From Escherichia phage CMS-2020a, in the sequence record CP053388.1: a stretch of DNA of 64,000 nucleotides, one strand, 5' to 3'. Positions 19,353-33,077 of this stretch are shown piece by piece (positions within the stretch are counted from its first letter, which is position 1; every line of letters starts with the position of its first letter). The position numbers were made by a program, and so were the translations under genes. The notes beneath the pieces were generated by a model. That model did no database searches. It was given only the letters and a program-made list of their open reading frames with translations, and was not told where the DNA came from.

Positions 19353-20261
19353 ATGATTGGTAAGTTGTCTGATTCTTTGATTGAAAATAAATACAACGAA
19401 TTTAGAGAAGAAATATCTTTACTTTTTGACTATTTAAATCAGATAAATGATACAACAAAGAAAAATATAAAACGTCTTCTTAAAGAAGTGGAGTATGCAC
19501 AGAATCCAGATACTATTATTAATATTAATGAAACTATTAAGATTAAGTGTGGCACAACGTTAGCTCGCCATTTATGTTCAAACCCATATACAGGTTCAAC
19601 ATTAGAGATAGGTAACAGCGCCATTGATTTAGAAGAAAAGATAAGATTGTGTAATACTTTGAAAAATAAACAATATCAGTGGGTTATTACTGAAGCCTAT
19701 GAGTTACTGGAAGACTATATTGAGGCAATATATGTCTATACTGTATGTGTTCGAAATGATTTATGGTCCTCAAGTGATTTTGGTAAGGTTGAAGATGATG
19801 AAATTGGGAAAAGGGAAGTTTATTACAGATTATTAAAAGCAAAAAGTAACCCATCGAAAAAAATAACTAAAATTTTCAGAAATAAAATACCTGGTTTCAA
19901 AGAGATAGAAACAAACAACAAGATTGGCAAAAACTATCGCTTTAACATCAAGCTAATTGAACTACTAAGACATACAATAGTACACAATAGTGGACGATTC
20001 AATGATACAGAAAAATTTATAAATAAGGTTTTAGATGAATCTGAAATAAACGGTAAGAAAAGAGTTATTGGAGAAAGAGCTGTTAGAAGTTACATTACTA
20101 AAGTGCAAGAAGATGATATTGTGATGCTCTTAGAAAGACCATCTGAAATTTTAGGTTCTTTTGGTGGGTATTTTAACAGAGCAAAATTTTTACTAAGTGA
20201 TATTTTAGAATACTCACTAATCATTAAAGAAGAACTAAAATCATATCTAGGCAATCATTAA
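19353..20261 (+). CDS. AT-rich foreign gene; HEPN-motif protein, possible Abi-like abortive-infection/defence protein
   Basis: GC content visibly far below neighbours; own AT-rich upstream region and terminator; RHTIVH fits Rx4-6H HEPN motif. Confidence 0.5.
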   Translation: MIGKLSDSLIENKYNEFREEISLLFDYLNQINDTTKKNIKRLLKEVEYAQNPDTIININETIKIKCGTTLARHLCSNPYTGSTLEIGNSAIDLEEKIRLCNTLKNKQYQWVITEAYELLEDYIEAIYVYTVCVRNDLWSSSDFGKVEDDEIGKREVYYRLLKAKSNPSKKITKIFRNKIPGFKEIETNNKIGKNYRFNIKLIELLRHTIVHNSGRFNDTEKFINKVLDESEINGKKRVIGERAVRSYITKVQEDDIVMLLERPSEILGSFGGYFNRAKFLLSDILEYSLIIKEELKSYLGNH

Positions 20262-20265
20262 CAAA

Positions 20266-20287
20266 AAAGGGGCCGAAGCCCCTTTGA
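20266..20287 (+). terminator. intrinsic terminator AAAGGGGC-CGAA-GCCCCTTT plus T-run
   Basis: GC stem-loop and T tract 5 bp after stop of 19353..20261. Confidence 0.7.
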
Positions 20288-20439
20288 ATTTTGCGCTGAA
20301 AAAAGTGTTGCTAGGATGTTAGCAAGCTATGGTTAAGAACGTCTGCCGTAATTGTCTATCACAGCGTTGAGCGGTCTGGTTTATGTTAGCGGAGTCTTAA
20401 TCTGGTTGATTAAAAGGCCAAACCGCTCAACGCTGTGTC

Positions 20440-20526
20440 TGGCGGAGAGTAATGGAATCGAACCATCATCGCTTGCGCAATGGGACGGTTTTCAAGACCG
20501 CTTGAGCACCATGCTCCCTACTCTCC
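20440..20526 (-). tRNA. tRNA-Ser (anticodon TGA), type II with long variable arm
   Basis: hand-folded: acceptor GGAGAGT/ACTCTCC, anticodon loop CTTGAAA, T-loop TTCGATT, encoded CCA; D-arm somewhat atypical. Confidence 0.55.
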
Positions 20527-20750
20527 GGCCGTTGTGGTGGCCGGTACTGAATCTCCGGCATACGGTGCAGCCAATTAGGACTACGGACGATCACCGCTCG
20601 CGAAAGGGAAGATTTGCGGCCGCATTTCCCTAACACCCAAGAAAGCTATCGCATCAGTCTGCGAATCCACCACAACGGTAAGATCACTACCTTTCGACCA
20701 GTCATTGTGCACATGAACGACGATTAACCGTAATGATCTTATCGTTGTAT

Positions 20751-20826
20751 TGGTGCCGGTTAACGGACTCGAACCGCTGACATCCTGCTTACAAGGCAGG
20801 CGCTCTACCAACTGAGCTAAACCGGC
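20751..20826 (-). tRNA. tRNA-Thr (anticodon TGT)
   Basis: hand-folded cloverleaf: acceptor GCCGGTT/AACCGGC, D-stem GCTC/GAGC, anticodon loop CTTGTAA, T-loop TTCGAGT, CCA encoded. Confidence 0.8.
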
Positions 20827-20830
20827 AATT

Positions 20831-20917
20831 TGGTGGGGAGTGATGGAGTCGAACCACCCGAGTCGCCATGACAGTAGATTTACAGTCTACACCGCTACCT
20901 CTACGGACTAACTCCCC
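20831..20917 (-). tRNA. tRNA-Tyr (anticodon GTA), type II
   Basis: acceptor GGGGAGT/ACTCCCC, anticodon stem-loop GTAGA-CTGTAAA-TCTAC, long variable arm, T-loop TTCGACT, CCA encoded. Confidence 0.7.
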
Positions 20918-20922
20918 TAAAT

Positions 20923-20997
20923 TGGCGATGGTGGGTGGATTCGAACCACCGACCAGTTGGTTAACAGCCAACTGCTCTACCGCTGAGCTACACCATC
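20923..20997 (-). tRNA. tRNA-Asn (anticodon GTT)
   Basis: clean cloverleaf: acceptor GATGGTG/CACCATC, D-stem GCTC/GAGC, anticodon loop CTGTTAA, T-arm GGTGG-TTCGAAT-CCACC, CCA encoded. Confidence 0.85.
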
Positions 20998-21775
20998 AAT
21001 TCGGCACTGCCAGTATTTATTACTCAACAGTGCCAATCGCGACGGTTTAGTTTCTGCCAGGAAACGCACCGCTACTTGCACTTTTCGTTAGTGCCAGACG
21101 CTTTCGACTTCGCTCAATAGTAGAAGGCAAAATCTTTAAGTAGATGATGTTTCTGAGGACAGCACCTACTTTGTTATTTATACAATGTAATGTATGGAAT
21201 CATTTGTTGTGAAAACAGGCACCAATGGCAACAGTGGTTAAACCTACACAACAATCCTGTCTTCACAACGTTGAGGCCACTACTCCGATTGAATGTTTGC
21301 CCAACATGTTACATATCAACGCTCGCCGGTATCTCTGTGAATAGAACCTTAGAATTGATAAAAATGTAATGGCCTCAACGTTGTGTGCTGGCTAACCATA
21401 CCAGCCGGGCTACGTCGCCGCTTTTTAACCCAGTATAAACGACATAATTGAACAAAATGACGTAACAGGATGGGCGGTCAGTGGCTAAGAATCCGGGAGT
21501 CATATGGAGTTGAAAATATACCGACCGCCCATTCTGTTACTTCATCGGAGGGAACACTCATGTTCCCTCCTGCGTTCTGCAATCACACTCGCTCAGTGTG
21601 TCCCATTTCGGTAACGAGGCTGGAAACTGACCTCGCTGGTGTTTGGCTTATTAGGCTACTGCCAGATAGACTTCTTCGTTTGCACTTGTATTTAAGTTCA
21701 AACAGTCGCGTCTCAACGAAAACAAAGTCATCTTATACATAAAAGATAAGTAAGTAAATACTTATCTTTGTGTTT

Positions 21776-22066
21776 TTATTCGGTTGTGGCTTTTTTGATC
21801 AAGGCCACTCTACGACTAGGTGTTCTTGTGATGGTGGCAGTGAACCGTTTCGCTTGGATAGTAATGGTTTCGTTCTCCTTAAGTTGCCCGTAGCGAGTTT
21901 CCACCAGGGTGCCAAGACGCCACAGACCATCATCGATACGTTTATGACTGGCAAATTTAATCAGCAGCAGTTTTACGACTAACTGACCTACGTAAAAGGC
22001 GAATGCGACTCCGGCCGCTAAGAAATAGGTGGCCAACCACCATTCCCAAGAAGTTAAATTGCTCAT
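21776..22066 (-). CDS. membrane protein (96 aa)
   Basis: N-terminal transmembrane segment; start overlaps stop of upstream small ORF. Confidence 0.45.
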   Translation of the reverse strand: MSNLTSWEWWLATYFLAAGVAFAFYVGQLVVKLLLIKFASHKRIDDGLWRLGTLVETRYGQLKENETITIQAKRFTATITRTPSRRVALIKKATTE

Positions 22067-22215
22067 TTTATAACCTTTGTTTCATGAACTACCCGATACA
22101 CGCGCTTTCCGATGCACAGTGTTTTGCTTTTAAGTTCCTGCTTAATTAAATCACGACAGATGCCGAAGCCGATAAGGAAGCCACCCATAAAAGCTAATGA
22201 GATGTATGGAATCAT
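22063..22215 (-). CDS. small membrane protein (50 aa), not in supplied ORF track
   Basis: hand-translated MIPYISLAFMGGFLIGFGICRDLIK...; ATGA overlaps with both neighbours. Confidence 0.3.
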   Translation of the reverse strand: MIPYISLAFMGGFLIGFGICRDLIKQELKSKTLCIGKRVYRVVHETKVIK

Positions 22216-22427
22216 TTTAACACTCCTGATTCTACTAATTGCTGTAGCAATACTTTCCCTTTATCAGTTAACTGGTAGTTGGCCGAGCACCACGTTTCAG
22301 AAACGTTTGCAACCAACCCTAACCGCTCTAACTTAGCTCGCGTTTTAGGCTTCCAGTACTCAGGGAACTCCGGCCACTTACTGATTTCATGAAGCGTTTC
22401 CTTCTCCCGCTTACTTAATACGATCAT
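22212..22427 (-). CDS. hypothetical protein (71 aa)
   Basis: ORF translationally coupled in chain of small genes. Confidence 0.4.
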   Translation of the reverse strand: MIVLSKREKETLHEISKWPEFPEYWKPKTRAKLERLGLVANVSETWCSANYQLTDKGKVLLQQLVESGVLK

Positions 22428-22590
22428 CCTTAATCTCCTTCACGGTGTTGGTTATTTCTACAATGCGATAAATACGACCGCGTCTTTCTATAACACCGCT
22501 TTTAATGTAGTCATTGATGCAACTGGACATCACCACAATACCTATGAAAAAACCAACTGCTAAAAATGCAATCATCCAGCCGAGCATCAT
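22411..22590 (-). CDS. small membrane protein (59 aa), not in supplied ORF track
   Basis: hand-translated MMLGWMIAFLAVGFFIGIVVM...; start ATG overlaps ligase stop (ATGA). Confidence 0.3.
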   Translation of the reverse strand: MMLGWMIAFLAVGFFIGIVVMSSCINDYIKSGVIERRGRIYRIVEITNTVKEIKDDRIK

Positions 22591-23909
22591 TCTTTATCTC
22601 CGATTCGATCTTCTGTATCGCGTAAGCAACGCGGCCATTTCAGTCGTGGGTGGCGTAAGCTGCCGTCCGGTGTTTTCTCGTGACAATGAACCTCGACAAT
22701 ACGACCACGGTACTTCTCTTTGTTGTTCCAGATCTCATCCAGATATTTATGCTTAATGCCGCTCGCACGAACGATGACGCCGTTTTCAAGACGAATAACA
22801 ATTTTTCCAAGCGTGTTGGCAAAACCAGAGTCCGGATCGCCCGGCTCAAAATCGATAATTTCACCATCTTCTGAATCTTCGTCTTTTAACTTCCACCAGC
22901 TGCGGGTACGTTTAAACTCGTAAACAGAGTTCGGATCTTTGCCCATCTCCCCTTCTTCGTTATCGTCCAGGCGTTTCATGAAGCGTTCGATGAAGTCTTC
23001 GTGGCTATGGATGATATAGAACGGATGCAGGTGAATGTCTTGTGTGTAGCCTTCACTGCGATCGTTTTTGAACAACGCCACCAGCATAGCCAGGCGCTCT
23101 TTCAGCTTCATACCTGTCTTTGCATACTCTTTGGATTTAGCCTGTGCTCGCCATTCCGGTAGGAAGAAGTCGAAAACATGATAAATAGCGCCAATTGCCT
23201 GCACGTTCTTTTTGCGCAATGCAGATACGGACTGGTTAAATGAACCGGCAGTTCCTTCACCATCGAAGAAGATGTGTTTGTGGCCTGAAAGTTTGCCTAA
23301 TTCGAGCATGGCTGGCTTTAGGTGATCGAGAGACGTGATTGGATTACCAGTACGAGAAAGGAAGTTAACCTCTTCCTCGTCAACAATAACCTCGCAAATT
23401 ACTCGCAAACCATCGAGCTTAAGACTGCCAATCATCGGCCATTTTGCTTTAGGATTTGGCTTGAAGGGGTATTTGTCGCCCTTTTCTTTATACGGTGACG
23501 CCAGCTGCACCTCGAATTTCGGAATGGAATTTTCAAAAACCTTGTTGCATAGGCTAATCCCAACGCCAGCTTTCGGGTCTTTTAAGAGGAAACGACGGAA
23601 CACGTCCTGCCCATCGGCGCACATTGACGCCACGATAGACTCAACAGCTGCTATTGCTGCGTTCCCCGTTAGCTCGCGAGAGGCCAGCTTATTCAGTACA
23701 TCAATGGCTTTTTCGTCACTTGGGATGGACTCACTAAGCGGCTCTGCCACTTTGTATTTCTTTACCCCAAAACGGATGAAAGGGTTGAGCATCAATGAAA
23801 CCATGCTTTGTTCAAAGTCATCCATGTTGGCCAATGCCTCTTTTTTTGCATTGGTTCCCATAGCTTTCATTTCGTCCAGCTTATGCTTAAGTGCGATCAA
23901 CTTTTTCAT
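22587..23909 (-). CDS. ATP-dependent DNA ligase
   Basis: adenylation motif I KLDGLR (KxDG) and motif FDGE. Confidence 0.8.
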   Translation of the reverse strand: MKKLIALKHKLDEMKAMGTNAKKEALANMDDFEQSMVSLMLNPFIRFGVKKYKVAEPLSESIPSDEKAIDVLNKLASRELTGNAAIAAVESIVASMCADGQDVFRRFLLKDPKAGVGISLCNKVFENSIPKFEVQLASPYKEKGDKYPFKPNPKAKWPMIGSLKLDGLRVICEVIVDEEEVNFLSRTGNPITSLDHLKPAMLELGKLSGHKHIFFDGEGTAGSFNQSVSALRKKNVQAIGAIYHVFDFFLPEWRAQAKSKEYAKTGMKLKERLAMLVALFKNDRSEGYTQDIHLHPFYIIHSHEDFIERFMKRLDDNEEGEMGKDPNSVYEFKRTRSWWKLKDEDSEDGEIIDFEPGDPDSGFANTLGKIVIRLENGVIVRASGIKHKYLDEIWNNKEKYRGRIVEVHCHEKTPDGSLRHPRLKWPRCLRDTEDRIGDKE

Positions 23910-24388
23910 TGTTGTTTTACCTCCATATGTTGATCGATTTGCTCATGTGTTTCTTTTGTTGTTTCTTCAAGCAACGCCGCATACACGTCAGTGATCGCTG
24001 TTTGTGATGTGGTGCTCTTCTTAACCATGCTATTAATCGTTACACTGTCACGTTTTCGTTTTAAAGTTCTGGCTTGTTTATTCCGTTCTTCAACCTCCTT
24101 AATGAGCGCGGTCATATCTTCGAAATACAGAGATTCTCCTTTACGAATCTCTTCAACCATCATTTTTAACGCCTTGCATTTGCCTGCTTTGATAGCGGTT
24201 GCGCACGACTGGAATGAAGTTCGAGGAAGACGGTTTTCTTTGAAGGCAAGAATGGTGTGCTGGCAAACGGAGTAGCTGCAATATGCCGACTCACCGTTTA
24301 TCTTTACTTCCTCACAACGAAGTGAATAACCATTATTTCCTGAAATAGAGGGGATTTTTGACAAATCAGCTTTCACAATTACCGCCAA
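23906..24388 (-). CDS. hypothetical Cys-rich protein (160 aa)
   Basis: ORF overlapping ligase start; several Cys in N-terminal half. Confidence 0.4.
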   Translation of the reverse strand: MAVIVKADLSKIPSISGNNGYSLRCEEVKINGESAYCSYSVCQHTILAFKENRLPRTSFQSCATAIKAGKCKALKMMVEEIRKGESLYFEDMTALIKEVEERNKQARTLKRKRDSVTINSMVKKSTTSQTAITDVYAALLEETTKETHEQIDQHMEVKQQ

Positions 24389-24443
24389 AAATAATCTTGT
24401 GCTTACCTATCATTATTTGCGTAAAAAACGACACACTGAGAGC

Positions 24444-25226
24444 TTACCAACTTCCCCAGCTAATCATCTTGCGCTGATCGCTTTCTAAGCGATAGGGGAC
24501 AAGAAGCTCTGTGACATGATTGGTGGCGTATGATTTAGCCTCTTGCTCTATCATCGGTAATTCGTTAGCAATCCTGACCATCTTCCCAGCAAACTCCGCC
24601 ATTACGCCATCACATGCCTTCCCAGCATCAATAACGATATGCACCAGATCCAACTGGCTTTTGCACATGTCGCAAAGAGACGCATACTCACTCTCTCTGA
24701 TTACATTTACGGCATCATTAGCCCCTTTATTAAGCAAGACTTCCAACAGGTTTGTCGGGGTAACGAAATCGGCTTTAAGTGACAATGTTCTCTCACCTTT
24801 TATCGACCGTAAGTACTCTTCGTAGTTTTGCTTGTCTTCCAGCAAAAATAAGCTATGCATAGTTAGAAGTGATTCTTGAATAGCCTCTTCAATAATACTG
24901 TCATTTGACGCACAAAAAACGGTATTTGTGTAGATCACTTTGCCATCCATCCATGCCCCAACCTGCACTTTAAGACTAATCGGGTTTTCTTTGCTAATAA
25001 AAACAACTAATGCAGAACGCCGTGCACAAGAAGGTTCACCCCATACGTGTAACTTAACCTTCAGATAAGGTAGCCCCGGTAGCGGGATCTCGACCAAACG
25101 AGTGGCGATATGATCCATTGCTGTTTTTACGGCTTTTTCAATGATGTCTAGCCGATTGCTCTCGCTGATTTCTAAACCAGTTTTATCAATGATGTCGCAG
25201 GCTAATTTCTGAATTTCGTCTTTCAT
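24444..25226 (-). CDS. hypothetical protein (260 aa)
   Basis: ORF in replication module, no motif recognised. Confidence 0.45.
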   Translation of the reverse strand: MKDEIQKLACDIIDKTGLEISESNRLDIIEKAVKTAMDHIATRLVEIPLPGLPYLKVKLHVWGEPSCARRSALVVFISKENPISLKVQVGAWMDGKVIYTNTVFCASNDSIIEEAIQESLLTMHSLFLLEDKQNYEEYLRSIKGERTLSLKADFVTPTNLLEVLLNKGANDAVNVIRESEYASLCDMCKSQLDLVHIVIDAGKACDGVMAEFAGKMVRIANELPMIEQEAKSYATNHVTELLVPYRLESDQRKMISWGSW

Positions 25227-25301: not shown

Positions 25302-26555
25302 TTATGATAGAGCCTTAATGCCCAAAACCTTGCTTTGCAACTCCAACTGCTTGGTATACGGTTTTGCCCGATAATAGGCTTTGATGATTTGCTCTGGCGT
25401 TGCATCGCCCGGGTCGAGTCCTTCCTCACCCAAACACGCAACTTTGACATTAAAACCGATACTGGTCAGTCGCCTGGCTGCGGCCATCGTGTTGCGTATA
25501 GCTTGCTTTTCACTATCCCACATCATGATCACATTACGTAACCCACGCGCCTTGAGCGTCAGGAACGCGCCTAACTGATCTTCTGCATCCTGAGTGGTGT
25601 TACCAGATAGATGCATCCCGAACGTTCCTATTGGTTCCACGTAATCACGTAATGTTTCTTCGTCAAAAATAGCTCGTTTAACCCCCATAACATCGAACGC
25701 CCCCTCACAGACAACTACAGTCTGTTTGCCGACTGCATTATGGCCGTTGTAGAGAAACTTACCTGAAGCTGGAAGTTGCATAGGAAAGAGGTAGCGGCGT
25801 TCTGCTGTACCGGTAATGTCTCGTCCCTGAAATGTCTTCATTACCCCATCCAGATCGTAAACCGGTATCAGTATTCGCATATCGAATATCTGTCCTTTAA
25901 CCTGATCTGTATACGGATCTACATAGGCGTGCTTGCCTTCGACGCAGTATCGTAGGTCAAAATACTTTGCCATTTCAGGCGATATGTTTCGTTCAACCAG
26001 ATAGTCTGGAAGACGGCCATCTATAGGAAGCTCGTAATGACGAGGGAGTGCAACTGGCCCCTCTAACTCGACTGTGCTTGCAAGCACTAGCTCTTCTTTC
26101 TTTGGTGCCCACCCCTGGGAAAGAAGGGCGTTCTGCACATATTCCTCGAACTGTCGTCGTGATTTGCCGCTGTAGTGCTTGAGGAAGACCAGCTTATTGA
26201 ACTGAATCTCTTCGGGATGATCACCAGCGAAGCATTTACCGACGCCACTGGTCAGATTGAAATATACCTTCCAGTTGGAGCTGCCGCATACCGGACACTC
26301 CTTGATATTCACTTCACGACCGCGAGTACTCACGCCTCCACGTCGATAAACGATACCTTCAGTATCCAACCATTGTTCAAAATCTAATTCGGTAATTAGC
26401 TCTTTCAGCTCGCTCACGATAATTCCACTTTTAACAGGCAATATTGTGACCAACCTAAATGTTGATATAACATAAAGGCTCATGTGTTTTTCTTTTGTGG
26501 TTTGGCAAAAGAAAAGTTGTTTCACCAATGAATCAAGCGTGGAGGTGTTCTCCAC
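25302..26555 (-). CDS. DNA primase (DnaG-like, zinc-ribbon plus TOPRIM)
   Basis: zinc-binding CPVCGSS and downstream Cys, acidic TOPRIM-like segment; start may lie at an internal Met. Confidence 0.75.
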   Translation of the reverse strand: MENTSTLDSLVKQLFFCQTTKEKHMSLYVISTFRLVTILPVKSGIIVSELKELITELDFEQWLDTEGIVYRRGGVSTRGREVNIKECPVCGSSNWKVYFNLTSGVGKCFAGDHPEEIQFNKLVFLKHYSGKSRRQFEEYVQNALLSQGWAPKKEELVLASTVELEGPVALPRHYELPIDGRLPDYLVERNISPEMAKYFDLRYCVEGKHAYVDPYTDQVKGQIFDMRILIPVYDLDGVMKTFQGRDITGTAERRYLFPMQLPASGKFLYNGHNAVGKQTVVVCEGAFDVMGVKRAIFDEETLRDYVEPIGTFGMHLSGNTTQDAEDQLGAFLTLKARGLRNVIMMWDSEKQAIRNTMAAARRLTSIGFNVKVACLGEEGLDPGDATPEQIIKAYYRAKPYTKQLELQSKVLGIKALS

Positions 26556-26564
26556 GCTTATTTT

Positions 26565-27905
26565 TTAGGTAACGTCTAAGATTCGCTCAATGAAGCGCAT
26601 TTGTTCGAGGTTTTGTTTAACGCGAATGCTGATCCCTCCCTGCTGGTTACGTGAACCGGCAAAGTAGAGACGAGCCTCTCCTTTCGCTTCTTCTTCTTCT
26701 GTTTTGTTGATCGTTATTACCAGGTCAGCAATACGTACTTTTTCGATGTTGTCGGCAGCGTGCATCATTGTGGCAACTTCTGACGCGCCACCTTCACGGT
26801 TTGTTTGCGATGCTGTGATACCAGCAACGTTGTGTTTGTCATAAAGAGCACGTAAGTCGGTATAGATACTACGTATGTTGGCGCGATCATCACGAAGGTC
26901 ATAACTGGCACGCATCAAATCTGCATAGTCGACAACAACCATGTCAGGCACCATGCCATTGGCTTTCATGCTGTTAAGCATACGATCCAGATCTGCCGGT
27001 GACATACTTCCTGACGGACGCTCAACAACCCACAAACTACCAATCCCCTTCGTGGCTCCCAACTCTGCCAACTTACGATGAACCTCATCGCGCCGTTCCA
27101 CCAGCTTGGACATTTCTGTCTCCGACAATCTTGCATCAAAACGGTCGGATAAAATGGTGGTGTGAACCTCCAGCGAGAGATACAGAACATTGTAGCCAGC
27201 AAGTGTTGCGTTTATGGAAAACTCACCCATTGCGGTCGATTTACCGGATTTAGCGAACCCCATGAAGAGCACCATTTCACGCTTCGCCCAGCCTTTTTGG
27301 TACAGCAACCTATCGAGCAGAGGGAGTCCAGTTGTAATGCTGTTTGGCACATACTCCTCTGAAGCCTCATATTCACGCGCCTTCAATCGCTCACTTGCGG
27401 AGGTGTAGTAGTCATAGATTCCGGTCGCTTCGTTCGATCCAATCTGCTGAACCTTGGCCATGATTGCCATCGCCCCCTGAAAGTCGCCCTTCTCTTTCAG
27501 TTCAGCAGCCTTAATCAGAGCATCATCAAACGCTACGCTTTTTGCGAAGGTTGATACCTGGTCAACCATGTACGAGGTATCGGACAATTTTTCTGCAAGG
27601 ATGCGCTTAAACGCAGCAACAACATCGGCGAATAGTTCCTCACGGATAGTCTTATCGCGTTTCGCACGCTTAAGCATATCCAGAATTGCAGATGAAGAGG
27701 GCGCGCTCTTGTACATACGGTAATAGCCCGAAACCATATTAACCAATATGGCATTGGCCGCATTGGCAAATTGGCTAGGTACAACCAGATCTCCAGCACG
27801 AGTAAGAAACTCGTGATCACGACAAAAATAGGCCGTCAATCTGTTCTGAAAATCTTCATCAAACTCTTCGGACAGCCCGCGTCCTGTATGGCAAAGTTCG
27901 GTCAT
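26565..27905 (-). CDS. replicative DNA helicase (DnaB-like)
   Basis: Walker A GFAKSGKST, Walker B VVVDYADL, RecA-like C-terminal domain. Confidence 0.8.
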   Translation of the reverse strand: MTELCHTGRGLSEEFDEDFQNRLTAYFCRDHEFLTRAGDLVVPSQFANAANAILVNMVSGYYRMYKSAPSSSAILDMLKRAKRDKTIREELFADVVAAFKRILAEKLSDTSYMVDQVSTFAKSVAFDDALIKAAELKEKGDFQGAMAIMAKVQQIGSNEATGIYDYYTSASERLKAREYEASEEYVPNSITTGLPLLDRLLYQKGWAKREMVLFMGFAKSGKSTAMGEFSINATLAGYNVLYLSLEVHTTILSDRFDARLSETEMSKLVERRDEVHRKLAELGATKGIGSLWVVERPSGSMSPADLDRMLNSMKANGMVPDMVVVDYADLMRASYDLRDDRANIRSIYTDLRALYDKHNVAGITASQTNREGGASEVATMMHAADNIEKVRIADLVITINKTEEEEAKGEARLYFAGSRNQQGGISIRVKQNLEQMRFIERILDVT

Positions 27906-29791: not shown

Positions 29792-30151
29792 TTAACCTTT
29801 CTTCATCAACTCTCGTTTGATTTCATCGGTACGCATCGTGACATCGGCAGCGGTGATCGCCTCATTCAATTTCACGATGTCCTCGATTTCCTGCGGTGAC
29901 TTCTCTGCCAGATGGAAAATGGCTGCTCGAATCACGTCAGAACGAGTGAACTTCTCGAAGCGAGGGATGAACTTCATCATCTCCAGCAGTTCGAAGTATT
30001 CGTCCTCCAGTGACATTGTGCGGCTTTTAATTTTCTCTTTGCCACGAGTCGGGCGTCCCTGTGGTCTGACTGGTTGGCGCAAAGGAGTTGTGTTCTTAGC
30101 CGGTGCATCAGGCTCTTTGCGCTTTGCTAGGTCACCCATTTTCATGGACAT
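29792..30151 (-). CDS. ribbon-helix-helix centromere-binding protein (ParG-like small partition protein)
   Basis: 119 aa, basic N-terminal tail, RHH-like segment MSLEDEYFELLE; start overlaps parA stop. Confidence 0.5.
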   Translation of the reverse strand: MSMKMGDLAKRKEPDAPAKNTTPLRQPVRPQGRPTRGKEKIKSRTMSLEDEYFELLEMMKFIPRFEKFTRSDVIRAAIFHLAEKSPQEIEDIVKLNEAITAADVTMRTDEIKRELMKKG

Positions 30152-30819
30152 TATTCTTCTTCCTCCAGACTCAACAGATAATCTACAAATTCTTCAAACT
30201 CGGCTTCCGCCTTTTTGTCGCGCTCGCTACCGGTCATTTCAAAGATAGAACGACCAGACTCTTCCGCATCATCATAGACGTTGCGGTTATACAGATTGAC
30301 TGGCGCAGACTCGATTCCAAACGTCTCAACAATCTCTTTAGCCGCCAGAATGCGAGACACTTGTGATGGCAAAGCCGGGCACTGGTTCATGACCGCGCGG
30401 ACCTTCACTTTATCGTTTACATTGCGAACATTGTCGATAATAGGATCGATGTCACGTAAAGATTTCAAATCACGACGCTTAGGACGCAGCGGGATAATGA
30501 TAACGTCAGCCATCAGCATCGCTTGTCGCTGAATTTCGGAGTCGAAGCCACCAGCATCTACCACTACAAACTCAGCTCTACCCTGAAGCGATTTTAGGTG
30601 CTTAATGATGTCATCCTGAACGTATGCAAAAGGAATCAGCTCAAGGTCTTCGTTCTGTCGACGGTCTTCACACCAGCTCGTTGTCGTGCGCTGAATATCT
30701 ATATCGGTAATATAAACCTTCTTCTTCTTTTTGACTTTCAGGCAAACGGCAATTTGCTGGGCAACGGTGGATTTGCCAGGCCCGCCCTTTGTGCCGCCAA
30801 CCACAAAGATCTTGGTCAT
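30151..30819 (-). CDS. parA: ParA/Soj-family partition ATPase (short type Ib)
   Basis: deviant Walker A GGTKGGPGKST; 222 aa. Confidence 0.8.
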   Translation of the reverse strand: MTKIFVVGGTKGGPGKSTVAQQIAVCLKVKKKKKVYITDIDIQRTTTSWCEDRRQNEDLELIPFAYVQDDIIKHLKSLQGRAEFVVVDAGGFDSEIQRQAMLMADVIIIPLRPKRRDLKSLRDIDPIIDNVRNVNDKVKVRAVMNQCPALPSQVSRILAAKEIVETFGIESAPVNLYNRNVYDDAEESGRSIFEMTGSERDKKAEAEFEEFVDYLLSLEEEE

Positions 30820-31414: not shown

Positions 31415-31936
31415 GTGAGCAATACAACGATAGAGATTTTCTCTGGAGAGAAAGATTATGATCTAAACGGTTTTGATTGCGGCGAAGAGTCACTAAACGC
31501 CTTTTTAGCCAACCACTTAAAAAGGCAGCATGAGGGAAAAATTCTTCGTGCTTATGTGCTTTGCACTCAAGAAGAAAGGCCAAAAGTGCTAGGATATTAC
31601 ACTTTGTCAGGTAGTTGTTTTGAAAAGGAGTCCTTACCTTCAAGAAGCAAACAAAAGAAGGTTCCTTATCGGAATGTTCCAAGTGTTACTTTGGGTAGGC
31701 TGGCTTTGGACAAGTCCCTTCAAGGTCAAGGATTTGGCTCAATGCTTGTAACACATGCAATGCGCGTTGTGTACAATGCATCTCTTGCTGTAGGCATTCA
31801 TGGACTTTTCGTTGAGGCGTTAAATGACAAAGCCAAGGCGTTTTATAAAAGTTTAGGCTTTATCCAGCTGGTTGGTAACAACGAGCGTTCTTTGTTCTAT
31901 CCTACAAAATCTATCGAAAAATTGTTCGAAGAATAA
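31415..31936 (+). CDS. GNAT acetyltransferase toxin (TacT/AtaT-like)
   Basis: GNAT motif A LQGQGFGSMLV; operon arrangement with small upstream partner; GTG start. Confidence 0.65.
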   Translation: MSNTTIEIFSGEKDYDLNGFDCGEESLNAFLANHLKRQHEGKILRAYVLCTQEERPKVLGYYTLSGSCFEKESLPSRSKQKKVPYRNVPSVTLGRLALDKSLQGQGFGSMLVTHAMRVVYNASLAVGIHGLFVEALNDKAKAFYKSLGFIQLVGNNERSLFYPTKSIEKLFEE

Positions 31937-31968: not shown

Positions 31969-32184
31969 TCACCAACCACAAACCCTCTCTCCCATCGTAT
32001 TGTGAAAAAGGATTTGGCGTTCGGTTTCTTCAGTCATTACATCATTATTGCTGATATAGATAGGCTCAGCCCCATCGCAGAACAACACGCTGGCTGTTTG
32101 TGGTTTAATGACGCACCCACTTATCATACAACTCACGATGAACGGCAGAAGCATCTTTCTGACGTATTTTACTGCTCGTCTCAT
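31969..32184 (-). CDS. o-spanin (Rz1-like outer-membrane lipoprotein) candidate
   Basis: signal peptide with lipobox ISGC; overlaps 3' end of i-spanin candidate. Confidence 0.45.
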   Translation of the reverse strand: MRRAVKYVRKMLLPFIVSCMISGCVIKPQTASVLFCDGAEPIYISNNDVMTEETERQILFHNTMGERVCGW

Positions 32185-32356
32185 TCACCACTTTCACTGT
32201 GTTTTGAAGTCGTTTTCTGTCTTCCTGTTTTGCCTTCTCTTCCATTGCTCGTCGCGCCGCATTCCCGCCCATCGTGTAAGCGCCGACAAGAACGAAAAGA
32301 ACGGCAGCCAGCGTAATCAAAGCAACTTTTAGCTTTGTCATCAGGCTGCCTAGCAT
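32105..32356 (-). CDS. i-spanin (Rz-like) candidate
   Basis: N-terminal TM helix then charged coiled-coil; immediately after lysin-like gene. Confidence 0.5.
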   Translation of the reverse strand: MLGSLMTKLKVALITLAAVLFVLVGAYTMGGNAARRAMEEKAKQEDRKRLQNTVKVVNETSSKIRQKDASAVHRELYDKWVRH

Positions 32357-32357
32357 A

Positions 32358-33077
32358 TTAGACCATCCCTTTCTGGTGTCTTCTTACCTGCGACCAGGCA
32401 ATGAATCCGGCCACAACAATAGTGGCAATGCCGAAGATGATGCGTACTGTATCCCCGCTAGAGATATGACCTTGTGCCTTATCCATAGCAGCGGAAACCT
32501 GCGGCATAACATCGGCCAGCTGCGCCAGACCAATACCTGCTGTAACAGTTGCGCCTGCGGTTTCTTTAGTTACAGGAACAGCCTTCACGGTTTTCACCGG
32601 CTTAACAACGCCAGCTCGACGCAGACCTTCCTCAATAACTTCTGCCGCATACCAGGTGTTCAGCGTTTTTAGCGGGCCTCGGCCATTCTCGTGGCGAATG
32701 ATTGCCTCAACCAAAGGTCGAAGGATGTCGTAATCATGCAGATCGATGATCATGTCTGCGGTTACACCAACGGCTTTAGACACCTCATTAATGTAGGCGT
32801 CAGTATTGTTTTCATTCGGCGGTGCCCAGCGTTCAATAACTTCACGAATGGTATCGATACTTGTGCCGTCTTTTGCGCGACGTTTATCGTGGTAGGTAAT
32901 TAGAGTCACCGCCAGCGCACGAATCCCCCAAACAGGGTCTTTAAACGTGCAAAAGCGCGGTTCGGCAGGGTTGTCGATTAGCCCCTGCCACGGCGAACCT
33001 TTGTCGAGGTTGCCAGGGTTGTTATTACGAATGCCTCTCGGAGTTTTCATCCTTGATCTCCTGTTATTGCAGTCCAT
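32358..33077 (-). CDS. putative cell-wall hydrolase / endolysin with C-terminal membrane anchor
   Basis: position in lysis cassette upstream of spanins; C-terminal hydrophobic helix; catalytic family not identified. Confidence 0.4.
   Translation of the reverse strand: MDCNNRRSRMKTPRGIRNNNPGNLDKGSPWQGLIDNPAEPRFCTFKDPVWGIRALAVTLITYHDKRRAKDGTSIDTIREVIERWAPPNENNTDAYINEVSKAVGVTADMIIDLHDYDILRPLVEAIIRHENGRGPLKTLNTWYAAEVIEEGLRRAGVVKPVKTVKAVPVTKETAGATVTAGIGLAQLADVMPQVSAAMDKAQGHISSGDTVRIIFGIATIVVAGFIAWSQVRRHQKGMV

Follow-up and report, generated by a model that had tools for sequence, protein, structure and literature searches.

Coupled small genes behind the ligase of an SSU5-like phage-plasmid: two probable membrane-anchored modules

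Background

Described small membrane proteins encoded with phage replication genes include p16.7 and p1 of Bacillus phage phi29, reportedly membrane organisers of phage DNA replication; in p16.7 a helical stalk links an N-terminal membrane anchor to a cytoplasmic C-terminal nucleic-acid-binding domain. Here we examine four small genes, p59, p71, p50 and p96, that follow the DNA ligase gene in a 64,000-nucleotide (nt) stretch of Escherichia phage CMS-2020a (CP053388.1), referred to below as the window. The window is an SSU5-like phage-plasmid; over positions 21500-24000 it shares 98.3% identity with Escherichia phage Cyrano, which is the phage-plasmid pLF82 of E. coli LF82, and 79% with Salmonella phage SSU5. 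Phage-plasmids of this type are common in clinical Enterobacterales and include pHCM2 (S. Typhi) and pMT1 (Y. pestis), and few of their small genes have been assigned a function.

The same four proteins, in the same order, are held as PHROG families 4381, 4054, 6302 and 4507 and under the name AplA, in entries that carry no function; the genes, their order and their families are thus already in public catalogues and are not a new kind of system. New here are the paralogy of p59 and p50, a probable organisation into two modules, a likely winged-helix assignment for p71, a repeat-mediated deletion, and evidence against lysis and lysogenic-exclusion readings. The reading that we favour, with a probability of roughly 0.4, is that the genes encode two optional membrane-anchored, cytoplasm-facing protein pairs that serve the replication operon.

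Results

The four open reading frames (ORFs) are almost certainly real, coupled genes. They lie on the minus strand downstream of the ligase gene, with exactly the coordinates given in a first-pass annotation of the window (Table 1), and its view of them as real and tightly coupled is borne out by open frames, substitution ratios and conserved overlaps. Pairwise ratios of nonsynonymous to synonymous substitution (dN/dS), calculated by the Nei-Gojobori method against SSU5, pHCM2 and Klebsiella orthologues wherever dS could be estimated, were 0.09-0.19 across all four genes (p59, 0.11-0.19; p50, 0.09-0.18), with dS from 0.8 up to saturation; all four ORFs are under purifying selection. All complete copies were open in 11 related loci (SSU5, pHCM2, pMT1, two Enterobacter, four Klebsiella and other E. 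coli plasmids), with p50 truncated at a deletion junction in two loci, L009 and L010. Amino-acid identity among relatives was about 60-80% for the small genes, compared with 84-91% for the ligase. Gene order and strand after the ligase were identical in Cyrano, SSU5, pHCM2, pMT1, Enterobacter and Klebsiella, and the overlap lengths (-4 or -1, -17, -4 or -1, and -4 nt) were constant, despite saturated dS, across lineages that include the last five.

Coupling through ATGA start/stop overlaps, which had been proposed for the whole chain, is present at the ligase/p59, p71/p50 and p50/p96 junctions; at p59/p71 it is replaced by a 17-nt overlap (22411-22427), and the AAGGAG and ATG of p71 fall within the 3' end of p59. 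A further 4-nt overlap joins the ligase start to the stop codon of the 160-amino-acid (aa) ORF that precedes it, so that the coupled chain comprises six genes and begins one gene earlier. Shine-Dalgarno-like GGAG/AGGAG motifs stand 7-13 nt ahead of the p59, p71 and p50 starts, and p96 has AAGG only. For p59 the second ATG is probably the conserved start, giving a 58-aa product, since the position of the first ATG reads CTG in SSU5, pHCM2 and pMT1. The two genes that the first-pass annotation reported as missing from the ORF track correspond to p59 and p50, both under 60 aa and for that reason passed over by a default track; p59 is likewise without annotation in the Cyrano record and p50 in one pHCM2 record.

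In PLSDB, 759 plasmids match the region (Klebsiella 308, Escherichia 226, Enterobacter 89, Salmonella 49, Yersinia 43), and the locus is present in 234 of 5426 complete E. coli genomes. Catalogue equivalents of the four genes are SSU5_045-048 and, in Cyrano, CYRAN_37-39, and each protein has a full-length match to a PHROG family without known function (p59/4381, expectation value (E) 3.6e-39; p71/4054, E 1.7e-45; p50/6302, E 6.1e-35; p96/4507, E 5.7e-58). Searches of Pfam, NCBIfam and PADLOC returned nothing at threshold for any of the four. Cluster searches on a 5.8-billion-protein index yielded 28 clusters for p71, 42 for p96 and 146 for the p59/p50 profile; all source names given were Enterobacterales, and large contigs were about 100-112 kilobases (kb).

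As the first-pass annotation held, three of the proteins are membrane proteins, p59, p50 and p96 each having one strong hydrophobic segment on the Kyte-Doolittle scale, and p71 is soluble. The best 19-residue means are 2.55 for p59 (residues 7-25), 1.84 for p50 (residues 2-20), 2.00 for p96 (a single membrane segment at about residues 10-37) and 0.33 for p71. In each membrane protein the hydrophobic segment is followed by K/R-rich sequence, and because of this basic charge the positive-inside rule predicts an N-out/C-in orientation for all three, with the conserved domains in the cytoplasm. In p59 an invariant G13xxxG17 precedes a basic tail (...RRGRIYRIVEIT...); the tail of p50 reads ...GKRVYRVVHET.... 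Pairwise BLASTP aligns the two peptides at 33% identity (E 3e-6), and their joint alignment has G13, G17 (GxxxG), K30, R39, Y41, R42 and T47 as invariants: judged by sequence, p59 and p50 are paralogues. A hidden Markov model of the p59/p50 family, run against all six-frame ORFs of the window, found only the two known copies. The RefSeq name of p59 in the newest records, 'after-plasmid-ligase protein AplA' (the label in NZ_OZ501609), is a positional name only.

Conservation within the two peptides is concentrated in their tails. Entropy was 0.65 bits in the tail against 0.92 bits in the membrane helix across 52 p59-type cluster representatives, and 0.51 against 1.10 bits across 19 p50-type representatives, a pattern that suits anchors with a specific cytoplasmic interaction surface rather than membrane-damaging peptides. 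It also bears on the idea that the peptides are host-takeover factors that bind and block machinery in the host inner membrane (the divisome, for example), arresting division or remodelling the envelope during replication. SidA and DidA of Caulobacter are divisome inhibitors of this kind, and p59 and p50 resemble known small membrane inhibitors in their size, their single GxxxG helix and their co-expression with replication genes. However, SidA-type inhibitors act through the membrane helix, which is here the least conserved part; Pfam, PHROG and NCBIfam searches gave no homology to such inhibitors; and the genes are intact in pMT1 of Y. pestis, which is kept as a plasmid. We consider a takeover role quite unlikely.

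In p71, an AlphaFold2 model (predicted local distance difference test (pLDDT) 77; predicted template-modelling score (pTM) 0.60) places helices at residues 6-17, 30-35 and 55-66 and strands at 39-41 and 51-53. Nearly all top matches to this model in a Foldseek search of the Protein Data Bank (PDB) were winged-helix proteins, mainly of the MarR family (TM(query) 0.62-0.72; probability up to 1.0), and P27-K-T-R-A-K-L-E34, the putative recognition helix, does not vary; a minimal winged-helix fold is likely on the strength of the model. Like MarR/PadR-type winged helix-turn-helix (wHTH) proteins and small stand-alone phage wHTH proteins, p71 has a predicted helix, recognition helix, beta-hairpin wing and C-terminal helix, and it also carries the L-x-x-L-E-R-x-G-L-V ... 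Y-x-L-T-x-K-G pattern of the MarR/PadR type. Unlike MarR proteins, it is half their size, lacks the dimerisation helices, has a Pro/aromatic loop in place of helix 2 and belongs to no Pfam family at threshold. Below threshold, the best Pfam match was HTH_45 (E 0.18; 12.3 bits, the cut-off being 25.5) and the best NCBIfam match the SSO5209 family (E 0.013); PADLOC returned weak wHTH matches only, to Csa3 (C-terminal wHTH)/CARF models (E 0.0015-0.027). The HTH_45 and Csa3 matches agree with the winged-helix model, and a BFVD search returned many uncharacterised phage proteins of 57-100 aa.

Beyond its membrane segment, p96 has a juxtamembrane helix that is its most conserved stretch (FASHKRIDDGLWRLG.L.E..YG.LK), a beta hairpin and a basic tail; AlphaFold2 predicts, with low confidence, a helix at residues 6-60 and strands at 67-71 and 76-80. 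We considered p96 as a third member of the p59/p50 family and rejected it (profile-profile hhalign probability 0.5%). An exhaustive profile search of 1.84 billion representatives recovered 18 clusters only, of which 17 were short proteins of the p96 family or fragments of them, none an annotated relative, and one was a repetitive 808-aa protein (E 7.6e-4); a context look-up for a distant homologue, P0197, found nothing in viral or genome contigs. Homologues of p96 are labelled 'C-type natriuretic protein' in many GenBank and RefSeq records, which looks like a propagated annotation error, as Pfam and NCBIfam scans give it no support. A literature search found no paper pairing that label, or 'after-plasmid-ligase', with plasmids. 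Two chimeric variants occur among relatives (proteins P0196 and P0060): one, from a Klebsiella deletion variant, joins 33 aa of the ligase N-terminus to the p96 C-terminal domain, and in the other the N-terminal 60 aa of p96 run into an unrelated C-terminus with Pfam PF13876.

The four genes are lost and kept in two blocks. Among 57 SSU5-like IMG/VR loci with enough flank, all four genes were present in 35, p59 alone was missing in 9, only ligase, p50 and p96 were present in 8, p96 was missing in 4 and none of the four was present in 1; p59 never occurred without p71 among these loci. The Klebsiella plasmid pF138_1 keeps p50 and p96 only, behind a ligase remnant. Klebsiella INF334 and Enterobacter CP156938 keep ligase, p59 and p71; in both, p50 breaks off after about 23 codons and p96 is lost. 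In pMT1 an IS100 interrupts the ligase, yet all four small genes are intact. A distant branch (ligase 74% aa identity) carries ligase followed by a p50-like (50%) and then a p96-like (37%) gene, still overlapping, without p59 or p71; accordingly p50-p96 is the older and more persistent pair, whereas p59-p71 seems to have been inserted later, its peptide being the product of a duplication. Membrane anchoring together with a two-module structure, p59 with p71 and p50 with p96, is very probable, and the four genes are dispensable for plasmid maintenance and carriage.

Loss of p59 has a simple structural basis. Two imperfect direct repeats (14 of 16 positions identical), exactly 163 nt apart, hold the Shine-Dalgarno sequences and starts of p59 and p71 (Table 1), and the p59-only loss is an exact 163-nt deletion that joins the two copies and fuses the ligase stop to the p71 start; in L003, for example, the ligase end runs straight into the ATGATC of p71. 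As the junctions read, recombination between the 16-nt repeats explains the 163-nt p59/AplA deletion. Among the complete E. coli genomes with the locus, p59 was found in 133 of 234, with the two-piece match expected of a 163-nt deletion in about a third. The region is a hotspot for deletion and recombination.

The genes might instead be early-lytic superinfection-exclusion or immunity genes, their inner-membrane peptides blocking DNA entry by a second phage after induction or infection, reportedly in the manner of T4 Imm/Sp or HK97 gp15. They encode small single-pass inner-membrane proteins within an early-type operon, and their accessory nature, fast evolution (about 70% aa identity, with 84-91% for the ligase) and frequent loss are typical of phage-phage conflict genes. 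Several observations make a role in exclusion unlikely. The conserved parts are predicted to be cytoplasmic, dN/dS of 0.1-0.2 gives no sign of diversifying selection, PADLOC has no match for p59, p50 or p96, and the coupled winged-helix protein is left unexplained. Expression in the lysogen is also at the floor: a re-analysis of LF82 does not include CYRAN_36-39 among the Cyrano morons, that is, genes expressed in the lysogen (PMC9928086), and average normalised counts in lysogeny broth (LB), on a scale where 4.99 means zero reads, were 5.9 for the ligase, 6.4 for p71, 5.0 for p50 and 7.6 for p96, against 43.7 for CYRAN_34 and 150.9 for CYRAN_40 (PMC9928086 S1 table). The small genes are near-silent in the Cyrano lysogen in LB, and at this level they cannot protect a plasmid-carrying cell. 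The exclusion function that had been suggested for them is, in its lysogenic form, disfavoured by this floor expression, by their absence from the listed morons and by the PADLOC result.

Holin modulation and toxicity, the other functions first suggested for the peptides, fare no better. One membrane segment (Kyte-Doolittle mean 1.84-2.55) followed by a K/R-rich C-terminus, as in p59, p50 and p96, is the layout of a class III holin, an antiholin or a type I toxin, so that lysis-timing modulators or membrane-damaging toxins come to mind, and p96 has a faint match to a holin family, PHROG 2359. That match, the sole one to a holin, is confined to the membrane segment and is not significant (E 0.027), and Pfam has no holin match for any of the three. 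The genes do not lie beside the lysis cassette, which sits 9.8 kb upstream as a separate block and a different transcription unit (a holin is annotated beside endolysin/Rz in Cyrano), with toxin-antitoxin, ParA, helicase and primase genes between. For the membrane proteins there was no match to Hok or any other toxin family in Pfam or NCBIfam at E<=1; they are embedded in an operon with Shine-Dalgarno sequences and overlapping stop and start codons, with no promoter of their own detected, rather than standing alone under antisense-RNA control; and Rfam found no antisense small RNA in 20000-24500. Given also that the tails are more conserved than the membrane segments, a lysis or toxin role is highly improbable, and the four genes are probably not lysis or lysogenic-conversion genes.

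Neighbour genes were placed by mapping Cyrano genes onto the window, and all are on the minus strand (Table 1); the ligase gene is 98.5% identical in nucleotide sequence to CYRAN_36. A consensus promoter scan detected no internal promoter for the small genes. Past p96, an AT-rich hairpin is the probable end of the operon and shows one compensatory pair (A-U to G-C) in an alignment, A7, of the region beyond p96; its loop doubles as the -35 box of the promoter of a downstream RNA. Further on lies a transfer RNA (tRNA) cluster (20440-20997; Asn, Tyr, Thr, Ser). Its composition varies among close relatives, with Asn/Thr/Ser in Cyrano, Asn only in SSU5 and Asn/Tyr/Arg in NZ_OZ501609, and no tRNA cluster was present in the fetched flank of the distant branch.

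Between p96 and the tRNA cluster lies a conserved, non-coding, structured RNA, which RefSeq does not annotate and which may be a transfer-messenger RNA (tmRNA)-derived RNA of a new type. Its sequence is 78-80% identical in SSU5, pMT1 and Klebsiella, and 71-74% identical in the distant branch, where it lies 1.8 kb farther off and p96 is only 37% identical. On A7, RNAalifold predicted 93 pairs, 24 with compensatory changes and 95.2% of cells paired, and the covariation score was 0.280 against 0.165 in shuffles (reached by 0 of 500), slid controls giving 0-6 double-change pairs. Near the predicted 5' end, a ten-codon frame encodes ANEEVYLAVA, which resembles the E. coli tmRNA tag ANDENYALAA; seven of the eight aligned sequences have no in-frame start codon upstream, and the tag varies at positions 3-5 only (ANEEVYLAVA, ANEEMYLAVA, ANDNQYLAVA, ANEDTYLAVA, ANEDAYLAVA, ANDTQYLAVA, ANEDSYLAVA). 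As in helix 5 of tmRNA, the tag stop codon sits in the loop of a small helix. Rfam matches were below threshold and to the tag region only, both in the window (beta_tmRNA, 14.4 bits, E 0.017; tmRNA_permuted, 14.5 bits) and in one IMG/VR locus, L036 (tmRNA_permuted, 26.2 bits, E 0.0015; tmRNA, 11.7 bits, E 0.0098). ARAGORN called no tmRNA, whether in the window, in 9 related loci or in the 20 loci taken from a tag-pattern scan, and a manual search of the RNA found no acceptor stem or T-loop of a tRNA-like domain; a CGTTGAG repeat in the window was considered as a closing helix and rejected, since it is left over from a 69-aa ORF, of which L013 and L017 have intact copies.

The exact tag pattern is present in 116 contigs of IMG/VR. 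For 26 of these, the flank that was fetched shows neither the ligase nor any of the small genes; a length of about 46-50 kb is common among them, and the one that was searched, L036, matches unrelated Klebsiella siphophages (about 46 kb) of the MK54/ZCKP8 type. Where tRNA calls were made, the tag RNA usually lies a few hundred bases upstream of a same-strand tRNA cluster. A literature search found no paper linking tmRNA with SSU5-type elements. The 69-aa ORF follows the RNA in L013 (8525-8775) and L017 (7035-7260), its stop overlapping (TAATG) the start of a truncated 'MIPYIS...' frame, a third p50-like remnant in the distant branch; the window keeps only the first bases of the 69-aa ORF (ACGTTGAGG, about 21370-21381). 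The remnant and the ORF trace point to repeated rearrangement around p50-like starts.

Table 1. Coordinates of the small genes, their neighbours and associated elements in the window
Feature	Position	Strand	Basis or remark
p59, 59 aa (58 aa from second ATG at 22587)	22411-22590	minus	ORF
p71, 71 aa	22212-22427	minus	ORF
p50, 50 aa	22063-22215	minus	ORF
p96, 96 aa	21776-22066	minus	ORF
Repeat copy 1, 16 nt, GGAGATAAAGAATGAT	22586-22601	minus	holds p59 Shine-Dalgarno and start
Repeat copy 2, 16 nt, GGAGATTAAGGATGAT	22423-22438	minus	holds p71 Shine-Dalgarno and start, inside p59 3' end
ATP-dependent DNA ligase, 440 aa	22587-23909	minus	Pfam PF01068 E 5.7e-13; PHROG 114 E 1.8e-125
Unknown gene, 160 aa	23906-24388	minus	ORF; Cyrano mapping
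Unknown gene, 260 aa	24444-25226	minus	Cyrano mapping
Primase	25302-26417	minus	Cyrano mapping
Helicase	26565-27905	minus	Cyrano mapping
ParA	30151-30819	minus	Cyrano mapping
KacT toxin	31415-31936	minus	Cyrano mapping
Rz	32105-32356	minus	Cyrano mapping
Endolysin	32358-33050	minus	Cyrano mapping
AT-rich hairpin, 9 base pairs, loop UUUACU, then UUUU	21744-21767	minus	9 nt past p96 stop
Structured RNA, about 340 nt, with promoter	21381-21767	minus	conserved non-coding, between p96 and tRNA cluster
-35 box TTTACT; 17-nt spacer; -10 box TAAGAT	21758-21753; 21735-21730	minus	sigma-70-like, alignment A7
Tag frame GCA AAC GAA GAA GTC TAT CTG GCA GTA GCC TAA (ANEEVYLAVA, stop)	21683-21651	minus	ten codons, near RNA 5' end

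Discussion

In the reading that we favour, the four accessory genes would form the distal end of a replication operon that also holds helicase, primase, two genes of unknown function and ligase, and ribosomes would read them by re-initiating at the overlapping stop/start sites. Each module would open with a small N-out/C-in peptide, made of a GxxxG helix and a conserved basic cytoplasmic tail, and tight coupling would lead to near-stoichiometric synthesis of that peptide and its partner: the winged-helix protein p71 for p59, and p96, with its cytoplasmic helix and beta hairpin, for p50. Each peptide could then pair with its partner on the cytoplasmic side of the inner membrane. During the time when the replication genes are active, the complexes could tether or regulate a cytoplasmic target, for which the DNA of the phage-plasmid or a factor bound to it is the most plausible candidate. 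The cytoplasm-facing peptide-partner complexes are a tentative part of this proposal, and the replication or DNA-tethering role is a doubtful one.

A number of points weigh against this proposal. Binding between peptide and partner is read from gene order and co-loss, and the topology from hydropathy and the positive-inside rule; the p96 model has low confidence (pLDDT 65, pTM 0.33). The structural matches of p71 are weak by E-value (0.017 and above), the loop that replaces its helix 2 makes DNA binding putative, and there are comparable small winged-helix proteins of phages whose targets are host proteins. All four families are confined to SSU5-like elements of Enterobacterales, and neither family nor protein searches tie any of the four genes by homology to a function. 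Either module is often lost in nature, so neither is needed for replication as such. Finally, in conditions other than LB and in macrophages, p71 and p96 were about 3-5 times as high as the ligase, in noisy data on very short genes (PMC9928086 S1 table); the difference hints at an internal promoter or differential RNA stability and would loosen the link to the replication operon.

These results narrow the experiments that would be useful, with natural variants offering ready knock-outs for comparison, and they correct the annotation of a region in which records often overlook p59 and p50 and give p96 a wrong name. The main gain of the region may be the neighbouring, unannotated tmRNA-like RNA. 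It would be a long shot to regard p50-p96, and p59-p71 as its duplicated derivative, as an unrecognised membrane-tethering system of phage-plasmids; if they were, small cytoplasm-facing anchors would bring to the inner membrane either a DNA-binding partner or the element itself as it replicates, and such tethering could adjust copy number or the transition from plasmid to lytic replication, as a Gram-negative counterpart of phi29 p16.7/p1.

Among described systems, T4 Imm/Sp and other small superinfection-exclusion proteins are, like the membrane proteins studied here, small proteins of the inner membrane encoded among early phage genes; the proteins studied here share no homology with them, their conserved domains are predicted to be cytoplasmic and their expression in the lysogen is at the floor. 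They differ from phi29 p16.7/p1 in that the hosts are Gram-negative, replication is not protein-primed and the SSU5 modules are often lost; p96 has no sequence similarity to p16.7, and its DNA binding is putative, suggested by analogy. What the two systems have in common is that small proteins are encoded with replication genes and that the layout of p16.7 would fit the one predicted for p96 from hydropathy and a low-confidence model.

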